51,776 nucleotides of DNA from an uncultured Clostridium sp. (GTDB lineage Bacteria > Bacillota > Clostridia > Oscillospirales > CAG-272): the NCBI GenBank assembly GCA_964629615.1, contig CAZVUD010000003.1, forward strand, positions 11,764-63,539, read 5' to 3'. Within the stretch, counting starts at the first letter, position 1. Every line of letters starts with the position of its first letter. Under the pieces are notes generated by a model. It searched no databases and was not told the DNA's origin. It saw only the letters and a program-made list of their open reading frames with translations. Shown piece after piece: positions 10,684-24,524 of this stretch. Made by a program: the position numbers and the translations under genes.

Positions 10684-10758
10684 GCCCTCATAGTTAAATG
10701 GATATAATAAGCCCCTCCTAAGGGTTAGTTATGGGTTCGATTCCCGTTGGGGGTGCCA
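10684..10758 (+). tRNA. tRNA-Arg (anticodon CCT), CCA encoded
   Basis: Hand-folded cloverleaf. Acceptor GCCCTCA/TGGGGGT, D-arm GTTA-aatggata-TAAT, anticodon stem AGCCC/GGGTT with loop CTCCTAA (CCT at 10717-10719), T-arm ATGGG-TTCGATT-CCCGT, discriminator G plus CCA. Confidence 0.85.
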
Positions 10759-18342: not shown

Positions 18343-18395
18343 TAAAATTGTACAGAAAATTTTAAGCATATTAAATGAAAGGCAATATAAATCCC

Positions 18396-21026
18396 ATGAA
18401 ATGGACATCTCTTAACGACATCAGAGAAAAATATCTCTCATTTTTTGAATCAAAGGGACATTTAAGACTTCCTTCGTATTCACTTATCCCCCATAACGAT
18501 AAATCTCTCCTTCTCATAAACTCAGGTATGGCACCTATGAAGAAATTCTTCACAGGTGAGGAAGTACCTCCGAGAAACAGAGTGACCACCTGCCAGAAGT
18601 GCATAAGAACTCCCGACCTTGAAAGAGTAGGTCACACCGCACGTCACGGAACATTCTTTGAAATGCTCGGAAACTTTTCCTTTGGAGATTATTTCAAGGT
18701 GGAAGCTATAACATGGGCATGGGAATTTCTGACCGAAGTGCTTGAGATCCCGAAGGATCTTCTCTGGCCCTCAATATACGAAGAGGACGAAGAGGCATAT
18801 GAGATCTGGGTAAACAAGATAGGCGTTGACCCTGCGCATGTTGTAAGACTCGGTAAGGCAGATAACTTCTGGGAGCACGGAAGCGGTCCTTGCGGTCCTT
18901 GCTCTGAAATATATTTCGACCGTGGCGAAAAATATGGTTGCGGATCTCCCGACTGTAAGCCCGGCTGTGACTGCGACAGATTTATTGAGATCTGGAACAA
19001 CGTATTCTCACAGTTCAATAACGACGGTAACGGCAATTATACCGAGCTTGCTCAGAAGAACATAGATACAGGTATGGGACTTGAGCGTCTTGCATGCGTA
19101 ATGCAGGGTGTTGACAATATGTTTGAGGTGGATTCCATACGTAAGGTAATTGATAAGGTATCTGAAATATCCGGCAAAAAGTACGGCGAGGATGCAAATA
19201 ATGATATCTCCATCCGTGTTATCACAGACCATTCAAGAAGTGCAATGTTCATGATAGCCGACGGTGTAATTCCTTCAAACGAGGGCAGGGGATACGTTCT
19301 GCGCAGAATCATCCGCCGCGCATGCCGTCACGGAAAGCTTCTCGGCATAAATCATTCCTTCCTTGTTGATACCGTAACCGTTTCCATAAATGAGAGCGCG
19401 TGCGCATACAAGGAGCTTGAGGAAAAGAGAGATTATATACTTAAGGTCATCTCCATGGAGGAAGAAAGATTTGATGCGACTGTAGACGCAGGTCTTTCCA
19501 TCCTTTCCGACCTCGTTCGCGGAGCTATATCCGAGCACGCAGATACTATCTCGGGAGAAGATGTATTTAAGCTCTACGATACATTCGGCTTCCCGATAGA
19601 CCTCACCCGTGAGATTGCGGCAGAAAGCCACCTTAGAATAGATGAGAATACCTTCAACATTCTCATGCTTCAGCAAAAGAAGAGAGCAAGAGAGGCAAGA
19701 AGCAATATTGGCGGTTGGGACGAATCCTCAAAGTCCATCATATCAGGACTTCCGAAAACGGAATTTACAGGCTATACCGACTACAGAAGCAATGCCAAGG
19801 TCATCGCTATACTCACAGATAACGGTTCTGTTTCCTCTGTAAACGAGGGCGATTGCTCCATTATACTTGACAGAACGCCCTTCTATGGAGAAGGTGGCGG
19901 TCAGGTAGGCGATACGGGTACTATCTATTCGGATAACTTTATCGCCAATGTATACGATACAAAGAAGACCGACGGCGTTTATATACACGCATGTACGGTA
20001 GTAAACGGAAATTTGAATGTCGGCGACGCCGTTTCTGCCGATATTGAAGACGCAAGACGCGATGCTATACGCAGAAATCACTCCGCGTGCCATTTGCTTC
20101 AGGCGGCACTCCGTGCTGTGCTCGGCAATCATGTAGAGCAGGCAGGCTCTTATGTAAGCAACAGCGTGTGCAGATTTGACTTTACACATTTTGCTCCACT
20201 CACAAATGAGGAAATTAAGGCTGTCGAGGGTCTTGTAAACCTCAATATCCTTGCCGCAAATGATATAGTTACGGTAGAAACCGATATAGAGACTGCAAGA
20301 AAGAACGGTGCTATGGCACTCTTCGGCGAAAAATACGGCGATGTTGTCCGCATGGTAAAGATGGGCAAGTTCTCAACAGAGCTTTGCGGCGGTACTCACT
20401 GTGATAATACAGGCAAGATAGGTCTTTTCAAGATAACATCCGAAGCAGGTGTTGCAGCCGGTGTCAGACGTATCGAAGCAGTTACAGGACTTGGTGTGCT
20501 TGGACTTATATCCGAGAAGGATAAGCTCATAAGCGATACTGCAAAGGAGCTTAAGGTCGCAAATACACATGAGATAGCAAAGCGTGCAAATGCTCTTACC
20601 TTGGAGCTTGCAAATGCAAAGAAGGAGATCGAACAGCTCAATGCGCGCATAGCTGCAGGCATGACAGACTCTCTCATTGCTGATGCTGTAAATATCGGAT
20701 CTGTAAGACTTATAAAGAAGCATCTCAGCAATACTAACATCGATGTGGCAAGAAGCCTCACTGATAAGATCAAGTCCGAAAACAGCGATGCTGTAGTAGT
20801 TCTTGCGGTAACTAATGAAGGCAAGCTCAATTTCATAACCGCGGCAGGCAAGGATGCCGTAAGCTGCGGTGTTCATGCAGGTAAGCTTGCAGGTCAGGTA
20901 GCGGCTGTTACAGGCGGTAAGGGCGGCGGACGTCCCGACAGCGCAATGGCAGGCGGACATGACGTAAATAAGATCACAGAGGCTCTTGATGCTGCAAGCA
21001 GCATATTGGCTTCTATGATAAAATAA
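18396..21026 (+). CDS. alaS: Alanine--tRNA ligase
   Basis: MKWTSLNDIREKYLSFFESKGH N-terminus, FEMLGNFSFGDYFK, and editing-domain HxxxH/CxxxH motifs. ATG 18375 is an alternative start. Confidence 0.95.
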   Translation: MKWTSLNDIREKYLSFFESKGHLRLPSYSLIPHNDKSLLLINSGMAPMKKFFTGEEVPPRNRVTTCQKCIRTPDLERVGHTARHGTFFEMLGNFSFGDYFKVEAITWAWEFLTEVLEIPKDLLWPSIYEEDEEAYEIWVNKIGVDPAHVVRLGKADNFWEHGSGPCGPCSEIYFDRGEKYGCGSPDCKPGCDCDRFIEIWNNVFSQFNNDGNGNYTELAQKNIDTGMGLERLACVMQGVDNMFEVDSIRKVIDKVSEISGKKYGEDANNDISIRVITDHSRSAMFMIADGVIPSNEGRGYVLRRIIRRACRHGKLLGINHSFLVDTVTVSINESACAYKELEEKRDYILKVISMEEERFDATVDAGLSILSDLVRGAISEHADTISGEDVFKLYDTFGFPIDLTREIAAESHLRIDENTFNILMLQQKKRAREARSNIGGWDESSKSIISGLPKTEFTGYTDYRSNAKVIAILTDNGSVSSVNEGDCSIILDRTPFYGEGGGQVGDTGTIYSDNFIANVYDTKKTDGVYIHACTVVNGNLNVGDAVSADIEDARRDAIRRNHSACHLLQAALRAVLGNHVEQAGSYVSNSVCRFDFTHFAPLTNEEIKAVEGLVNLNILAANDIVTVETDIETARKNGAMALFGEKYGDVVRMVKMGKFSTELCGGTHCDNTGKIGLFKITSEAGVAAGVRRIEAVTGLGVLGLISEKDKLISDTAKELKVANTHEIAKRANALTLELANAKKEIEQLNARIAAGMTDSLIADAVNIGSVRLIKKHLSNTNIDVARSLTDKIKSENSDAVVVLAVTNEGKLNFITAAGKDAVSCGVHAGKLAGQVAAVTGGKGGGRPDSAMAGGHDVNKITEALDAASSILASMIK

Positions 21027-21041
21027 TATTAATATATTTAC

Positions 21042-21069
21042 AAAAATCGGTGCGTGAGCACCGATTTTT
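21042..21069 (+). terminator. alaS terminator
   Basis: AAAAATCGGTGC-gtga-GCACCGATTTTT. Confidence 0.85.
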
Positions 21070-21116
21070 GTATTTAACTTTCGGGAATAACGCAACCAAG
21101 TGTTGTTTACAAATTA

Positions 21117-21158
21117 TTAACAATATATATATATATATATATATATTTGTGATAAAAT
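21117..21158 (+). promoter_or_regulatory. Putative promoter of island gene 1, with (AT)12 between the -35-like box and an extended -10
   Basis: TTAACA (21117-21122), then (AT)12, then TTG, then TGaTAAAAT (21150-21158). The -35 to -10 spacer is 30 nt as assembled. Confidence 0.4.
21123..21146. repeat. (AT)12 dinucleotide microsatellite
   Basis: 24 nt of uninterrupted AT repeats. Confidence 0.95.
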
Positions 21159-21217
21159 GTACATAAATTGAGTATTATCTCAATAAATTCATTGTGATAT
21201 TTATACGGAGGTTATGA

Positions 21218-22402
21218 ATGGAATTTCATCAGGATTATTACAAACTAGAAAAAGCTGCAAGCTTAATGGAAAAAATTCCTAAATTAATACAGCAAATTAA
21301 TTATTTAGAAAGTGAAAGATCTCATAATAGTGCCATCATAAGCTCAAATTGGCAAAGCAAATACAGAGAGAGCACGTATTATTATGATCTTGCCTATAAG
21401 CGAGAAACTGACCGTGTTGCAGCCGCTAAGTTAGCCGCACAAAAGAAAAGATCCTTTCGTAATATGATCATCTCAGCAATATTGCAATTTATTGCTTTAA
21501 TTGCAATGATCATTTTATCAGTTCACAACCTTGAAGGTTCATTTTATTGTATTGAATATTCGGTGATCATAATGATTTTGACGATCTATACTCAATATAA
21601 GAATTATCGCAAAAATATCACTGACTCTGCATCCGGGATATCAGTGCTAATACCAAAAATTGTGAGTATAATTCTGGTTGTTAGTGTTTTTATCTTTAAT
21701 TTAGACATATCTTTTCTCGGTGGTATTATTGTAGATAATATCACTTATGAAGGCACGATTCTTGTACCAATTATAGGAATGATCCAGAGTATAATTGCCG
21801 GATATTTTGTATTTACTCTAAATAAAAAATGCAGAGCACATGCTGTAATTGATCAAGCTGTGTTAGATAAAGCAAGAGCAGTGGATGAAAGAAGTAATAA
21901 GAGACGCCAAAATGAATTAAAAGAAAAATATGAATCTGATAAAAACACTGCTAAATTGGAAATTCGCAATATAAACGCTGTAATTAAACAATGTGAAGCG
22001 GAAATTGCAAACTTAAAGTCCGAGATAGCTGCAATTGGAATTTTAAATCGCAGTGAATATGATAACCCTAACAATGATCTTTCATTTGATTATATGATAG
22101 CAACGAAATATGCCGCAGACATTTACAGTGAAACAATGCAAACAGGCAGAATGGTTGATGTTGAATACGCACGTTACACGGAGAGCAAAAAACGTCGTGA
22201 TTTGAAAATTGCAATGGAGAATGCTAAAATGGCAGATGAAATGCGTAAACAACAGCAAACAGAAGAGTTTTTTGCACGTATGGATAGATATTATGACCGG
22301 CAGGAAACCCGCCGCAAAATATCCGATTTAGAGAAAAGTATAGATAATTATGCGGATAAAACAAAAGAACTGACAGAGGAATTAAAAAAATTCAGAGATT
22401 AA
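21218..22402 (+). CDS. Hypothetical membrane protein: soluble N-terminal region of about 80 aa, four predicted TM helices, C-terminal coiled-coil region of about 190 aa
   Basis: GGAGG RBS 6 nt upstream. Hydrophobic stretches at about aa 83-103, 108-128, 142-163 and 180-201. The C-terminus is rich in K/E/R/Q heptad-like sequence. I recognise no family motif. The gene is very AT-rich. Confidence 0.7.
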   Translation: MEFHQDYYKLEKAASLMEKIPKLIQQINYLESERSHNSAIISSNWQSKYRESTYYYDLAYKRETDRVAAAKLAAQKKRSFRNMIISAILQFIALIAMIILSVHNLEGSFYCIEYSVIIMILTIYTQYKNYRKNITDSASGISVLIPKIVSIILVVSVFIFNLDISFLGGIIVDNITYEGTILVPIIGMIQSIIAGYFVFTLNKKCRAHAVIDQAVLDKARAVDERSNKRRQNELKEKYESDKNTAKLEIRNINAVIKQCEAEIANLKSEIAAIGILNRSEYDNPNNDLSFDYMIATKYAADIYSETMQTGRMVDVEYARYTESKKRRDLKIAMENAKMADEMRKQQQTEEFFARMDRYYDRQETRRKISDLEKSIDNYADKTKELTEELKKFRD

Positions 22403-22405
22403 ATC

Positions 22406-22446
22406 AATGGGATTGTTGCAAATTAAAATGCAACAATCCCATTTTT
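22406..22446 (+). terminator. Terminator between the two island genes
   Basis: AATGGGATTGTTGCA-aattaaaa-TGCAACAATCCCATT followed by TTTT. Confidence 0.85.
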
Positions 22447-22474
22447 GACCATAATAAGAAATGTAGCATATAAT
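22445..22474 (+). promoter_or_regulatory. Promoter of island gene 2
   Basis: TTGACC (22445-22450), 18-nt spacer, TATAAT (22469-22474). Confidence 0.5.
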
Positions 22475-22507
22475 AGAGTAGTTTAATTTAAAGGAGTGGA
22501 TTTATCT

Positions 22508-23851
22508 ATGATATGCGGAAGTATTGGCAGAGAAGGCGGAAACTGTTTTATAAGTGAGGAAGCAGACAATGAATATATTAATATACATAATATCTACAAA
22601 ACCAATATAAAGCTGTCATCAGATGTAAATAAGCATGGAGTTTTGATACACGAAGGCATAAAATATGCATGCGTGCTCTGCGGTGAGTTGTATAACAGAA
22701 ATGAGCTTTTATCACTGATAAAAAAAGAATGCAGATGTAATATTGATCTGAACATCTCTGACTCTTTGCTGCTTATCTGGATGTATATATTTTACGGTAT
22801 GTATTCTCCAAAATATATAAACGGGAAATTTGCATATATCATATATTCCGAGGCTGTAACGCCCAAAATGTTTTTGGCAGTGGACAGATTTGGCTTTCGA
22901 AGTATATATTACAGAGAAGACAGAAATAATTTTTGCTTTTCAAGCAGCTTTGAAAGAATGCTTAAAGCAGGGAAGAGCACACTGTCTTATAATGGGATCG
23001 GAAATATATTTTATCTTGACGGAAATACATTTGATGATTTCACCGTGATAGATGAAATAAAAAAGATACCCTCCGGTGAGTGCGCCTGTATCGACTGTCG
23101 TGAAGAGATCAAAATGATAAGAAAAAGTTATGTACATTATAATAAAAATACGGACAGCAGCATTCAAAGCAAAGAAATGCTTTTAAATACATATCAAGAT
23201 ATCACCGCGCTGACTGAAGTTACAGATTGTATAAATATACCTGATACATTGGATATTTATAAGGCATTTTCAAATTATAAGGGGGATGACAATGTATATT
23301 CAAATATAGGTGCTGTCCTTTTTCAAGTACCATGTCTTGGCAGATCCCGTGGATATTTTCCATGGGTCATTGATCCGTATGAAAGTATATCTATTCTTGA
23401 TAGAAGCAGGATAAATATGACATATGCTTTTGATGGTATAAACAAAAAGAGGCAAAAATATGCTGATCCTGACAGCAGGACCTATTTTTTAGACTCTGCA
23501 GTGAAGCTCTATCTCCCAATGAAAATACGCAAAACAGAAATGATATCGGGATCTTTCAACATAAACATAAAGTATCCGCTTTGTGATGTGAATTGTATTC
23601 GTCACATTTATACATCCGAAAACTGCAATATATCAGATCTCAAAGCCTTTAAGTATAATAATAAAAATCATAAATATATTGAAAGCTTCACGAAAAAGCT
23701 TATACAGCTCTCAAATTCAGAGTCATCTATAGTAAACTACATTTCAAAAGAAGAGATAATAAAAGAAAATATGGGAAATATAAAAGCAATAAAGAAGCTT
23801 TATATGACCCATATTTTTATTCAGAAATATTCACTTGATCTTGATATTTGA
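22508..23851 (+). CDS. Asparagine-synthase-like protein, apparently degenerate (no SGGxDS PP-loop seen; N-terminal Cys displaced)
   Basis: Blocks align by eye with E. coli AsnB. CGELYNRNEL matches NGEIYNHQAL, SDSLLLIWMY matches SDCEVILALY, GKFAYIIYSE matches GMFAFALYDS, VDRFGFRSIYY matches RDHLGIIPLYM, IKKIPSGE matches IKEFPAG, and KTEMISGSFNINIKYPLCD matches ANKAMSAWGVEARVPFLD. AAGGAG RBS is 11 nt upstream of ATG 22508. Confidence 0.6.
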   Translation: MICGSIGREGGNCFISEEADNEYINIHNIYKTNIKLSSDVNKHGVLIHEGIKYACVLCGELYNRNELLSLIKKECRCNIDLNISDSLLLIWMYIFYGMYSPKYINGKFAYIIYSEAVTPKMFLAVDRFGFRSIYYREDRNNFCFSSSFERMLKAGKSTLSYNGIGNIFYLDGNTFDDFTVIDEIKKIPSGECACIDCREEIKMIRKSYVHYNKNTDSSIQSKEMLLNTYQDITALTEVTDCINIPDTLDIYKAFSNYKGDDNVYSNIGAVLFQVPCLGRSRGYFPWVIDPYESISILDRSRINMTYAFDGINKKRQKYADPDSRTYFLDSAVKLYLPMKIRKTEMISGSFNINIKYPLCDVNCIRHIYTSENCNISDLKAFKYNNKNHKYIESFTKKLIQLSNSESSIVNYISKEEIIKENMGNIKAIKKLYMTHIFIQKYSLDLDI

Positions 23852-23852
23852 T

Positions 23853-24524
23853 TTAAGGCTTAAACGGATTTTTCGCAGCTGCGTCCTTCATGCTGATTAT
23901 AACATTTCGCGGCTTTTTGGATTTGAATATTGCGGATCCTGCCACGATTATATTTGCACCTGCCGAGGTGCAAAGTCCGATATTATCCGCGTTTATACCG
24001 CCGTCCACCTCAATATCAAGATTGATACCTCTCTCCGCAACATACTTGCGAAGTGCCTGTACCTTGTCAAGGCAATCGGGAATAAGCGACTGACCGCCAA
24101 ATCCGGGCTCTACAGTCATGATGAGAGCCATGTCTATATAGTTGACAAGTGGGTAGAGAACATCTACAGGTGTATTGGGCGAGATCGCAAGCGCCGCCTT
24201 CATCTCATAGGAATGTATGAGATGTATGACAGACATGGGATTTTCACATGCCTCGTAGTGAACGGTTATTATATCAGCTCCTGCCTTGACAAATCGGTCG
24301 ATGTATCTTTCAGGGCGCTTGATCATAAGATGCACGTCAAAATAGAGGTCAGTGCACTTGCGTATGCATGATACAAGCTCAGGACCGAATGTAATGTTCG
24401 GAACGAAAGCGCCGTCCATTATGTCAAGATGAAGGTACTTTGCGCCTGCATCGGCGACCTTAGTGATTTCGGATTCCAGATTTGAAAAATCAGCCGCAAG
24501 AAGCGAAGGGGCTATATATAGCAT
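23853..24524 (-). CDS. rpe: Ribulose-phosphate 3-epimerase
   Basis: MLYIAPSLLAADFSNL start, HLDIMDG, VEPGFGGQ. Confidence 0.95.
   Translation of the reverse strand: MLYIAPSLLAADFSNLESEITKVADAGAKYLHLDIMDGAFVPNITFGPELVSCIRKCTDLYFDVHLMIKRPERYIDRFVKAGADIITVHYEACENPMSVIHLIHSYEMKAALAISPNTPVDVLYPLVNYIDMALIMTVEPGFGGQSLIPDCLDKVQALRKYVAERGINLDIEVDGGINADNIGLCTSAGANIIVAGSAIFKSKKPRNVIISMKDAAAKNPFKP

Follow-up and report, generated by a model that had tools for sequence, protein, structure and literature searches.

Does the AT-rich segment that lies between the housekeeping genes alaS and rpe of an uncultured gut Clostridia species constitute a single acquired system, or have two unrelated genes come to lie there side by side? 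We analysed a 51.8-kb stretch of DNA from this species (51,776 nucleotides, hereafter the window), in which the segment holds two intact genes on the + strand: gene 1 (21218-22402), coding for an orphan membrane protein of 394 amino acids, and gene 2 (22508-23851), coding for a protein of 447 amino acids, counted from its ATG, that is related to asparagine synthetases of the AsnB type. The original prediction had taken the pair for a single foreign cassette, similar to small defence, abortive-infection or toxin modules. Our results bear out its description of the two genes (open reading frames (ORFs), hydropathy, AsnB-type domain and motif losses) but not its view of them as a unit: gene 2 appears to have been inherited vertically at a fixed locus, and gene 1 is seen only in conspecifics. 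We consider it likely that the segment is a composite of two unrelated genes of different age and not one system.

The break in composition is as sharp as had been predicted. Across 21.0-23.9 kb the G+C content drops to 0.30-0.34 from about 0.46. In 400-nucleotide windows the G+C content is 0.27-0.36 at 21000-23999 and 0.44-0.50 on either side; the segment is the part of the window with the lowest G+C content, every other kilobase being higher. At third codon positions (GC3) gene 1 has a value of 0.27 and gene 2 one of 0.32, as compared with 0.43-0.51 for eight neighbouring genes. The two ORFs are not the product of chance, since at a stop-codon frequency of 0.084 per codon, as given by the composition of the segment, a frame as long as gene 1 would remain open with a probability of about 1e-15, and one as long as gene 2 with a probability of about 1e-17.

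The layout of signals foreseen in the original prediction is also there. Each gene has its own promoter-like site, and a strong terminator hairpin (22406-22443; a perfect 15-bp stem, an 8-nucleotide loop and a T-tract) stands between them. The promoter of gene 2 (TTGACC-18-TATAAT, 22445-22474, + strand) agrees with the consensus at 11 of 12 positions and is conserved in relatives that have no gene 1, so that it predates gene 1. A terminator and a separate, older promoter between the genes imply that gene 1 and gene 2 are separate transcription units.

Gene 2 occupies one locus in one host sub-clade

Among 5.8 billion proteins we found four close clusters of gene 2. An exhaustive scan of 1.84 billion representatives with a hidden Markov model (HMM) of the family recovered six full-length clusters and two partial ones, and the remaining ~15,900 matches covered only the amidotransferase domain of ordinary 600-amino-acid AsnB proteins. 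A scan of GTDB with a four-sequence alignment of the family returned nothing; the relatives in GTDB came from a scan of 185,579 species genomes anchored on rpe, which yielded about 34 related species (uncultured Clostridia, Eubacteriales and Oscillospiraceae from animal guts), and from a 13-sequence profile. Metagenomes gave two weak partial matches only, and the phage, plasmid and viral-contig collections contained no relative of gene 2.

All family members with readable context are convergent to rpe, and in 11 of the 13 lineages that carry the gene, among them L003, L004, L005, L006, L027, L085, L086, L087/L088, L089 and L098, it stands directly 3' of alaS. In the relatives the stop codon of rpe abuts or overlaps that of the gene 2 homologue. 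When rpe, ispF and alaS are combined in a neighbour-joining tree, all carriers group in a single sub-clade, and the gene 2 family tree agrees in topology with this host tree. Residence at one locus, restriction to one host sub-clade and matching trees together argue that gene 2 has been inherited vertically. Identity to the window protein declines in step with that of rpe (67% for gene 2 and 93% for rpe in one relative, then 34% and 90%, 26% and 85%, 22% and 81%). As far as sequence comparison can tell, gene 2 is an old resident pseudoenzyme, vertically inherited and not recently imported. The original prediction had held that conservation of both genes at this locus across the whole genus with host-like composition would contradict it: for gene 2 this is largely what is seen, all carriers with readable context having it at the same locus and belonging to one sub-clade, and its low G+C content developing gradually.

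The basal member of the family (L027, 6677-8542, - strand) has 622 amino acids, begins with MCSICG and matches PF00733 with an E value of 3.9e-23. Its PP-loop (the pyrophosphate-binding loop) is degenerate, reading LSGRPDFF, and the family motif FFPWIxDPY is already present; the protein looks like an intermediate between enzyme and pseudoenzyme. From this member to the window protein the length of the family shrinks stepwise, from 622 to 447 amino acids. The nearest outgroup, an AsnB-like protein of 598 amino acids (P0015, L097 230-2026), is devoid of the cysteine that follows the initiator methionine (Cys1) and has an altered PP-loop, TSGLDSL. Its gene lies away from alaS-rpe and adjoins MBOAT and DHHW-motif genes, a context of the envelope-acylation type.

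Several details of the locus in the relatives deserve mention. The gene 2 homologue and rpe have 4-13 nucleotides in common at their 3' ends in L003 (1724-1734), L086 (2224-2236), L087 (2097-2100) and L101 (1912-1915), which means that the convergent transcripts must overlap as well. Upstream of the homologue in L101 lies a divergently transcribed gene (3-290, - strand) for a secreted protein that has a signal peptide and is repeat-like in sequence. In L001 the DNA upstream of gene 2 is GC-rich (1-112) and is followed by the same hairpin as follows gene 1 in the window; these first 112 nucleotides had no match among the sequences compared.

A predicted AsnB fold without catalytic motifs

The only Pfam domain matched by the gene 2 protein is PF13537 (GATase_7, E 1.5e-12), which lies above the gathering score in all 13 members of the family. 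PF00733 (Asn_synthase) has no match in the gene 2 protein or in any of the 13 members, and the NCBIfam asparagine synthase model TIGR01536 reaches 44.8 bits, far under its cut-off of 267.1. The protein is laid out as a class-II glutamine amidotransferase fold (residues ~1-210) followed by a remnant of the synthetase domain that has no PP-loop (residues ~230-447). Aligned with hhalign to 34 AsnB-type proteins, the family matches over its full length (probability 100, E 5e-51), with a large deletion that takes out the PP-loop and the ~100-150 residues around it. An AlphaFold2 model built on a 45-sequence alignment has a predicted local distance difference test score (pLDDT) of 83.5. Its top match in the PDB, as found with Foldseek, is TsnB9 (7ylz; template modelling score 0.77), followed by beta-lactam synthetase, carbapenam synthetase and asparagine synthetases, the E values of the group being 1e-15 to 1e-10. 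The two-domain AsnB architecture is thus recovered for gene 2 by hhalign, by the model and by Foldseek, the alignment under the model having itself held AsnB proteins.

In contrast to this likeness of fold, the catalytic motifs of AsnB are gone. The cysteine right after the initiator methionine is missing in all short members: the window protein begins with MICG, and the other N-termini of the family read MSSICG, MSGICG, MSSLSG, MPKICG, MPKIYG, MFGIID, MDFICG and MSFIRG, with no later cysteine conserved. At the glutamine site (Arg49, Asn74 and Asp98 in E. coli numbering) the RLSIID region is absent, the asparagine of NGEIYN is replaced by cysteine, threonine or aspartate, and the aspartate of xDTE is variable. 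In the shorter members SGGxDS is deleted and SGExxDExFGGY is degenerate. The YFPW and xPFxD (ExRxPFxD) motifs and the positions of the C-terminal helix can still be aligned with those of the clostridial AsnB P0157. Besides these vestiges the family has motifs of its own, CAYxDCR and FFPWIxDPY, and eight residues (C192, D196, C197, R198, W286, D289, P290 and Y291) are invariant among members that are only 18-35% identical.

With Cys1, the glutamine site and the PP-loop lost, gene 2 should be unable to perform either half-reaction of AsnB. Its product is predicted to be incapable both of hydrolysing glutamine by the N-terminal-nucleophile mechanism and of adenylating a substrate via a PP-loop. 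Gene 2 is best described as a putative catalytically dead AsnB paralogue, forming a new, clade-restricted pseudoenzyme branch of the AsnB structural superfamily.

Gene 2 is under purifying selection and has drifted towards AT

The ORF of gene 2 is intact in 13 lineages. The ratio of nonsynonymous to synonymous substitution rates (dN/dS) is 0.19-0.22 overall and 0.12 in residues 46-210, as compared with 0.02-0.05 for rpe, and at the protein level gene 2 evolves about ten times as fast as its neighbours. Constraint extends to the promoter: the context of its -10 element, GCATATAAT (22466-22474, + strand), is kept in six lineages (the window, L001, L003, L004, L086 and L101).

The G+C content of gene 2 is lower than that of rpe by 0.03-0.04 in the basal members, and this deficit grows to 0.13-0.15 in the window and L001. 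Because the deficit builds up gradually along the lineage, the AT-richness of gene 2 is not a sign of recent import. We infer that it reflects faster evolution under AT-biased mutation and not a foreign origin.

Gene 1, a probable later addition seen in one species

Homologues of gene 1 are only conspecific: among the 5.8 billion proteins there is one other cluster (P0007, 77-78% identity) besides its own 90% cluster. Pfam, NCBIfam, PADLOC (E up to 1) and PHROGs gave no match above noise, and no significant match was found in the PDB (by sequence or by profile), in phage and plasmid records, in viral contigs or in GTDB genomes. Weak matches with E values of 0.01-0.8 (to a PHROG, to Pfam and to a signal-peptidase subunit) were set aside as chance matches of coiled-coil or transmembrane (TM) sequence. 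PADLOC-DB 2.0 likewise had no family for the gene 2 protein at E up to 1, so that, as anticipated, neither protein falls in any curated family or defence model of Pfam, NCBIfam or PADLOC.

Gene 1 is located between the alaS terminator and the conserved promoter of gene 2. No copy of it precedes gene 2 in L003, L004, L005, L006, L085, L086, L087/88, L089, L098, L101 and L001; all that separates alaS from gene 2 in relatives with gene 2 is a terminator and the conserved promoter. The hairpin at 22406-22443 recurs ahead of the gene 2 homologue of L001, a contig that lacks gene 1. The lack of gene 1 at this spot in relatives with gene 2 suggests that it is a later addition. Our comparisons suggest that gene 1 is an orphan belonging to no known family, much younger than gene 2 and seen only in this species. 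Neither a source nor an insertion mechanism was found for it, and it has no similarity to the cargo ORFs found at the same junction in other genomes. We also considered whether its upstream region arose by duplication of the promoter of gene 2; in local alignment 46 of 1000 shuffled sequences scored as high, too weak a result to retain the idea.

The protein would consist of a helical N-terminal part (residues 1-82), a TM region (83-201) and a helical, charged C-terminal part (205-394). Hydropathy gives three strong TM segments and one weaker one, at residues ~83-101, 109-125 (the weaker), 141-160 and 180-201. Stretches rich in lysine and arginine precede TM1, link TM2 to TM3 and follow TM4; by this positive-inside pattern both long helical ends are predicted to be cytoplasmic (N-in, C-in).

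Two old allele classes of gene 1 recombine within the species

In the conspecific contig L104, nucleotide identity to the window is 98.6% for alaS, 98.0% for gene 2 and 99.3% for rpe, and 97-100% from rpe through tsaB. The gene 1 alleles of the two share just 85% of their nucleotides and 78% of their amino acids. The divergence is concentrated in a core at 21382-21981 (+ strand; residues ~55-255; L104 ~1000-1600), where identity is 56-85%, and it is extreme at residues ~101-165, that is, in TM2-TM3. The synonymous divergence (dS) in codons 101-240 is 0.58-0.68, against 0.03-0.09 in the flanking genes. Raised dS means that the alleles are much older than the flanks, and that relaxed constraint is not a sufficient account. 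Between alleles dN/dS is 0.48, with 0.8 in parts of the gene and 0.17 in TM4, and all six of the alleles are intact.

Two proteins, P0162 and P0165, are mosaic, having the N-terminus of one allele class and the centre of the other, which points to recombination between the classes. For the membrane segment of gene 1 the species thus has two old classes of allele, between which recombination takes place.

The alaS-rpe junction in related species

Comparison of the junction in related genomes, which the original prediction had put forward as a check, revealed both empty and occupied sites. In 11 related species (L007, L010, L012, L015, L016, L021, L026, L029, L030, L032 and L038) the junction is empty and measures 54-126 nucleotides, and there is nothing in it but one strong hairpin or two, bordered by A- and T-tracts and of the same type as the alaS terminator. 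These look like bidirectional terminators common to the convergent alaS and rpe genes. Empty junctions are confined to the sister sub-clade, the rest of which has unrelated cargo at this place (L018/L020, L022/L028/L034, L025, L033 and L035/L036). The cargo comprises a 151-amino-acid MerR/HTH_17-like protein, a TMEM164-family membrane protein, a dehydrogenase-like ORF, an ATP-binding cassette (ABC) transporter with a TetR-like regulator, and proteins of 550 and 401 amino acids without a Pfam match. Such unrelated cargo in the sister sub-clade indicates that the alaS-rpe junction is variable in general.

A proposed pseudoenzyme and a proposed envelope protein as separate genes

We propose that in the common ancestor of the sub-clade a clostridial-type asnB paralogue took up its place by rpe, as a rule with alaS on its other side. 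It would then have lost catalysis stepwise, giving up the nucleophilic cysteine, the residues that bind glutamine and the entire region of the PP-loop, and would have kept the two-domain AsnB fold, its own promoter and purifying selection. Its product would act non-catalytically, as a binding or regulatory protein, with constraint bearing on the amidotransferase-like core and on CAYxDCR and FFPWIxDPY. This core forms the dimer contact in AsnB and in human ASNS, and the likeliest way for gene 2 to work would be by joining an active AsnB-type enzyme or some other partner via the conserved N-terminal domain. An active AsnB-type partner would be the simplest guess, one that we hold tentatively and with more doubt than belief.

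Gene 1, on the other hand, would be an envelope protein working independently of gene 2, with diversifying or balancing selection acting on its membrane and loop segment, for example through contact with phages or competitors; a role in such interactions is plausible. It is doubtful that one can go as far as to call gene 1 a strain-specific envelope determinant (in phage exclusion, receptor masking or immunity, under frequency-dependent selection), and/or gene 2 a pseudo-AsnB that regulates nitrogen or envelope metabolism via CAYxDCR and FFPWIxDPY.

Other explanations have to be set against this one. If the two genes were one horizontally acquired defence, abortive-infection or toxin module, with gene 1 as the effector and gene 2 as its sensor or partner, one could understand the low G+C content of the segment, the junction that is empty in many relatives, the uncharacterised state of both proteins, their adjacency in all conspecific contigs seen and the hyper-variability of gene 1 within the species, of a kind that defence and exclusion genes often display. 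We nevertheless hold such a module to be very unlikely, given that gene 2 is vertical at its locus and that at least ten lineages have it but lack gene 1, that the two are set apart by a terminator and by a promoter more ancient than gene 1, that PADLOC returned no match and the phage, plasmid and viral-contig collections no relative, and that the neighbours are housekeeping genes with neither mobility genes nor repeats found and nothing to tie the locus to defence islands or mobile elements. Co-occurrence of homologues, which was expected of a functional pair, is confined to this species: outside it the pair is never seen, as the original prediction would have it for an unsound pairing, and within it the two genes do occur together.

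Both genes could instead be on their way out, gene 2 as a functionless decaying relic and gene 1 as a weakly constrained or meaningless ORF, the AT-richness then marking DNA that is being lost. The loss of all catalytic motifs of gene 2, the shortening of the family from 622 to 447 amino acids with its drift towards AT, the empty site in the sister sub-clade and the dN/dS of gene 1 (0.48 overall and 0.8 in parts) are what decay would produce. It would hardly leave 394 and 447 codons open against the chance probabilities given above, nor a gene 2 that is intact in 13 diverged lineages with a dN/dS of 0.12-0.22, invariant family motifs and a conserved promoter, nor six intact alleles of gene 1 with a dN/dS of 0.17 in TM4, and we think it quite improbable. 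It is also unlikely, in our opinion, that gene 2 is an enzyme with a new chemistry, in which CAYxDCR and WxxDPY would occupy the cleft left by the deleted PP-loop and act perhaps on the cell envelope, like some AsnB paralogues. The eight residues that are invariant at 18-35% identity speak for such an enzyme, as does the position of P0015, the closest full-length relative outside the locus, beside MBOAT/DHHW envelope-modification genes; on the other side, the invariant residues may be structural, gene 2 has no nucleotide-binding motif left and its family has no conserved adjoining partner genes.

The reading of the segment as a resident pseudoenzyme joined by a younger, unrelated gene has its own weak points. 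Two carriers, L001 and L101, do not have alaS upstream of gene 2, and the left end of L001 may represent a different gene, a further insertion or a chimeric assembly. Just three proteins (rpe, ispF and alaS) went into the host tree, which was made by simple neighbour joining. When built from four sequences only, the AlphaFold2 model of gene 2 had a mean pLDDT of 32.6 and was unusable, and the 45-sequence alignment behind the good model includes real AsnB proteins, which biases the fold. No active AsnB was found in the 51.8-kb window, and a partner mechanism is hypothetical. Should CAYxDCR and WxxDPY, which are invariant, make up a new catalytic or metal site, the word 'dead' would overstate the case. 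Finally, gene 1 and gene 2 are adjacent in all conspecific contigs seen, and since gene 1 is always beside gene 2, a species-specific functional link is possible.

Relation to known enzymes

Gene 2 resembles AsnB (TIGR01536; the clostridial 600-amino-acid proteins P0157 and P0158) in its two-domain fold and in the order of elements up to the C-terminal helix, and it shares with it GExYN, RDRxG, YFPW, xPFxD and a C-terminal ending of the form W/F-x-x-K/E-Y/F. It differs in having no Cys1, Arg49 region, Asn74 or PP-loop, in its degenerate SGExxDE and in being restricted to one host sub-clade and one locus. The best structural matches, the hydroxyamidotransferase TsnB9 (7ylz), beta-lactam synthetase and carbapenam synthetase, keep the PP-loop and the ATP site and are encoded in biosynthetic clusters, neither of which is true of gene 2. 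Beta-lactam synthetase and carbapenam synthetase are likewise not known to have a working glutaminase nucleophile. Weak N-terminal similarity links gene 2 to lasso-peptide cyclases (NF033535, 45.9 bits), whose amidotransferase-like domain is non-catalytic; the cut-off of that model is 525 bits, however, and the cyclases need the PP-loop that gene 2 does not have. No lasso precursor-peptide or leader-peptidase gene was found near gene 2, whose neighbours are alaS, gene 1 and rpe.

Viral pseudo-glutamine-amidotransferases are presented in a review as pseudoenzyme paralogues that partner active enzymes (PMC7605207). Gene 2 is like them in having kept its fold and the selection on it after the loss of catalysis, which is an analogy of proposed mode of action only; there is no sequence relationship, and the partner of gene 2 is hypothetical. 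Beyond this review, the literature on asparagine synthase in defence or as a pseudoenzyme yielded nothing relevant.

The family of gene 2 offers a stepwise series from enzyme to pseudoenzyme at a fixed locus, all of it under purifying selection, that passes from a full-length protein with Cys1 and a decayed PP-loop, through deletion of the PP-loop region, to shorter forms richer in AT. Decay series of this kind are rare and could help in the study of how dead enzymes gain new roles. Gene 1 is of interest as an orphan with unusually deep polymorphism within one uncultured gut Clostridia species, such loci often marking contact with phages or competitors. Neither gene touches a long-standing question at present. 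For genome scans the locus is a caution that an AT-rich block amid housekeeping genes can be an old, fast-evolving resident; synteny and tree comparison were what told the resident gene apart from a recent import at alaS-rpe.

Further features of the segment and its flanks

The left flank is alaS, coding for alanyl-tRNA synthetase (18375-21026, + strand; PF01411 with E 8.9e-198, plus tRNA_SAD and DHHA1), which in related metagenome-assembled genomes is 70-83% identical to that of the window. Its terminator (21039-21072), of the bidirectional type with a perfect 15-bp stem, an A-tract on the 5' side and a T-tract on the 3' side, is intact and bounds the segment as described in the original prediction. 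The right flank is rpe, coding for ribulose-phosphate 3-epimerase (23853-24524, - strand; PF00834 with E 4e-75), which is convergent with gene 2, the two stop codons being one base apart. The flanking genes are all of the housekeeping kind: NFACT, a Fumble/BadF-type pantothenate-kinase-like gene, alaS, rpe, ispF, ispD, rpiB and tsaB. No integrase, transposase or recombinase ORF is present in the segment, and the only flanking direct or inverted repeats around it are short and at chance level, again in line with what had been reported.

The AT-rich leader of gene 1 (21073-21217, + strand) contains a promoter-like site, GTGATA-18-TATTAT (21149-21178, + strand), which the signal scan rated weaker than that of gene 2, and a GGAGG (21207-21211, + strand) ahead of the start codon. 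A (TA)11 microsatellite (21126-21147) also lies in this leader, within a 32-nucleotide imperfect palindrome (21103-21166). The conspecific Logan contig L002 ends exactly at the (TA)11 tract and is identical to the window over the leader at 21161-21220. An alternative GTG start for gene 2 at 22496 would give 451 amino acids; it directly abuts the GGAG and its use is unlikely, and the gene call in L002 likewise begins at MICG.

A short GC-rich hairpin (23465-23482) with T-runs on both strands lies within the coding sequence of gene 2, ~370 nucleotides past the stop codon of rpe, and may be the end of the rpe transcript or a chance match. The sole Rfam match in the window is a tRNA (10684-10755, + strand), distant from the segment and unrelated to it.

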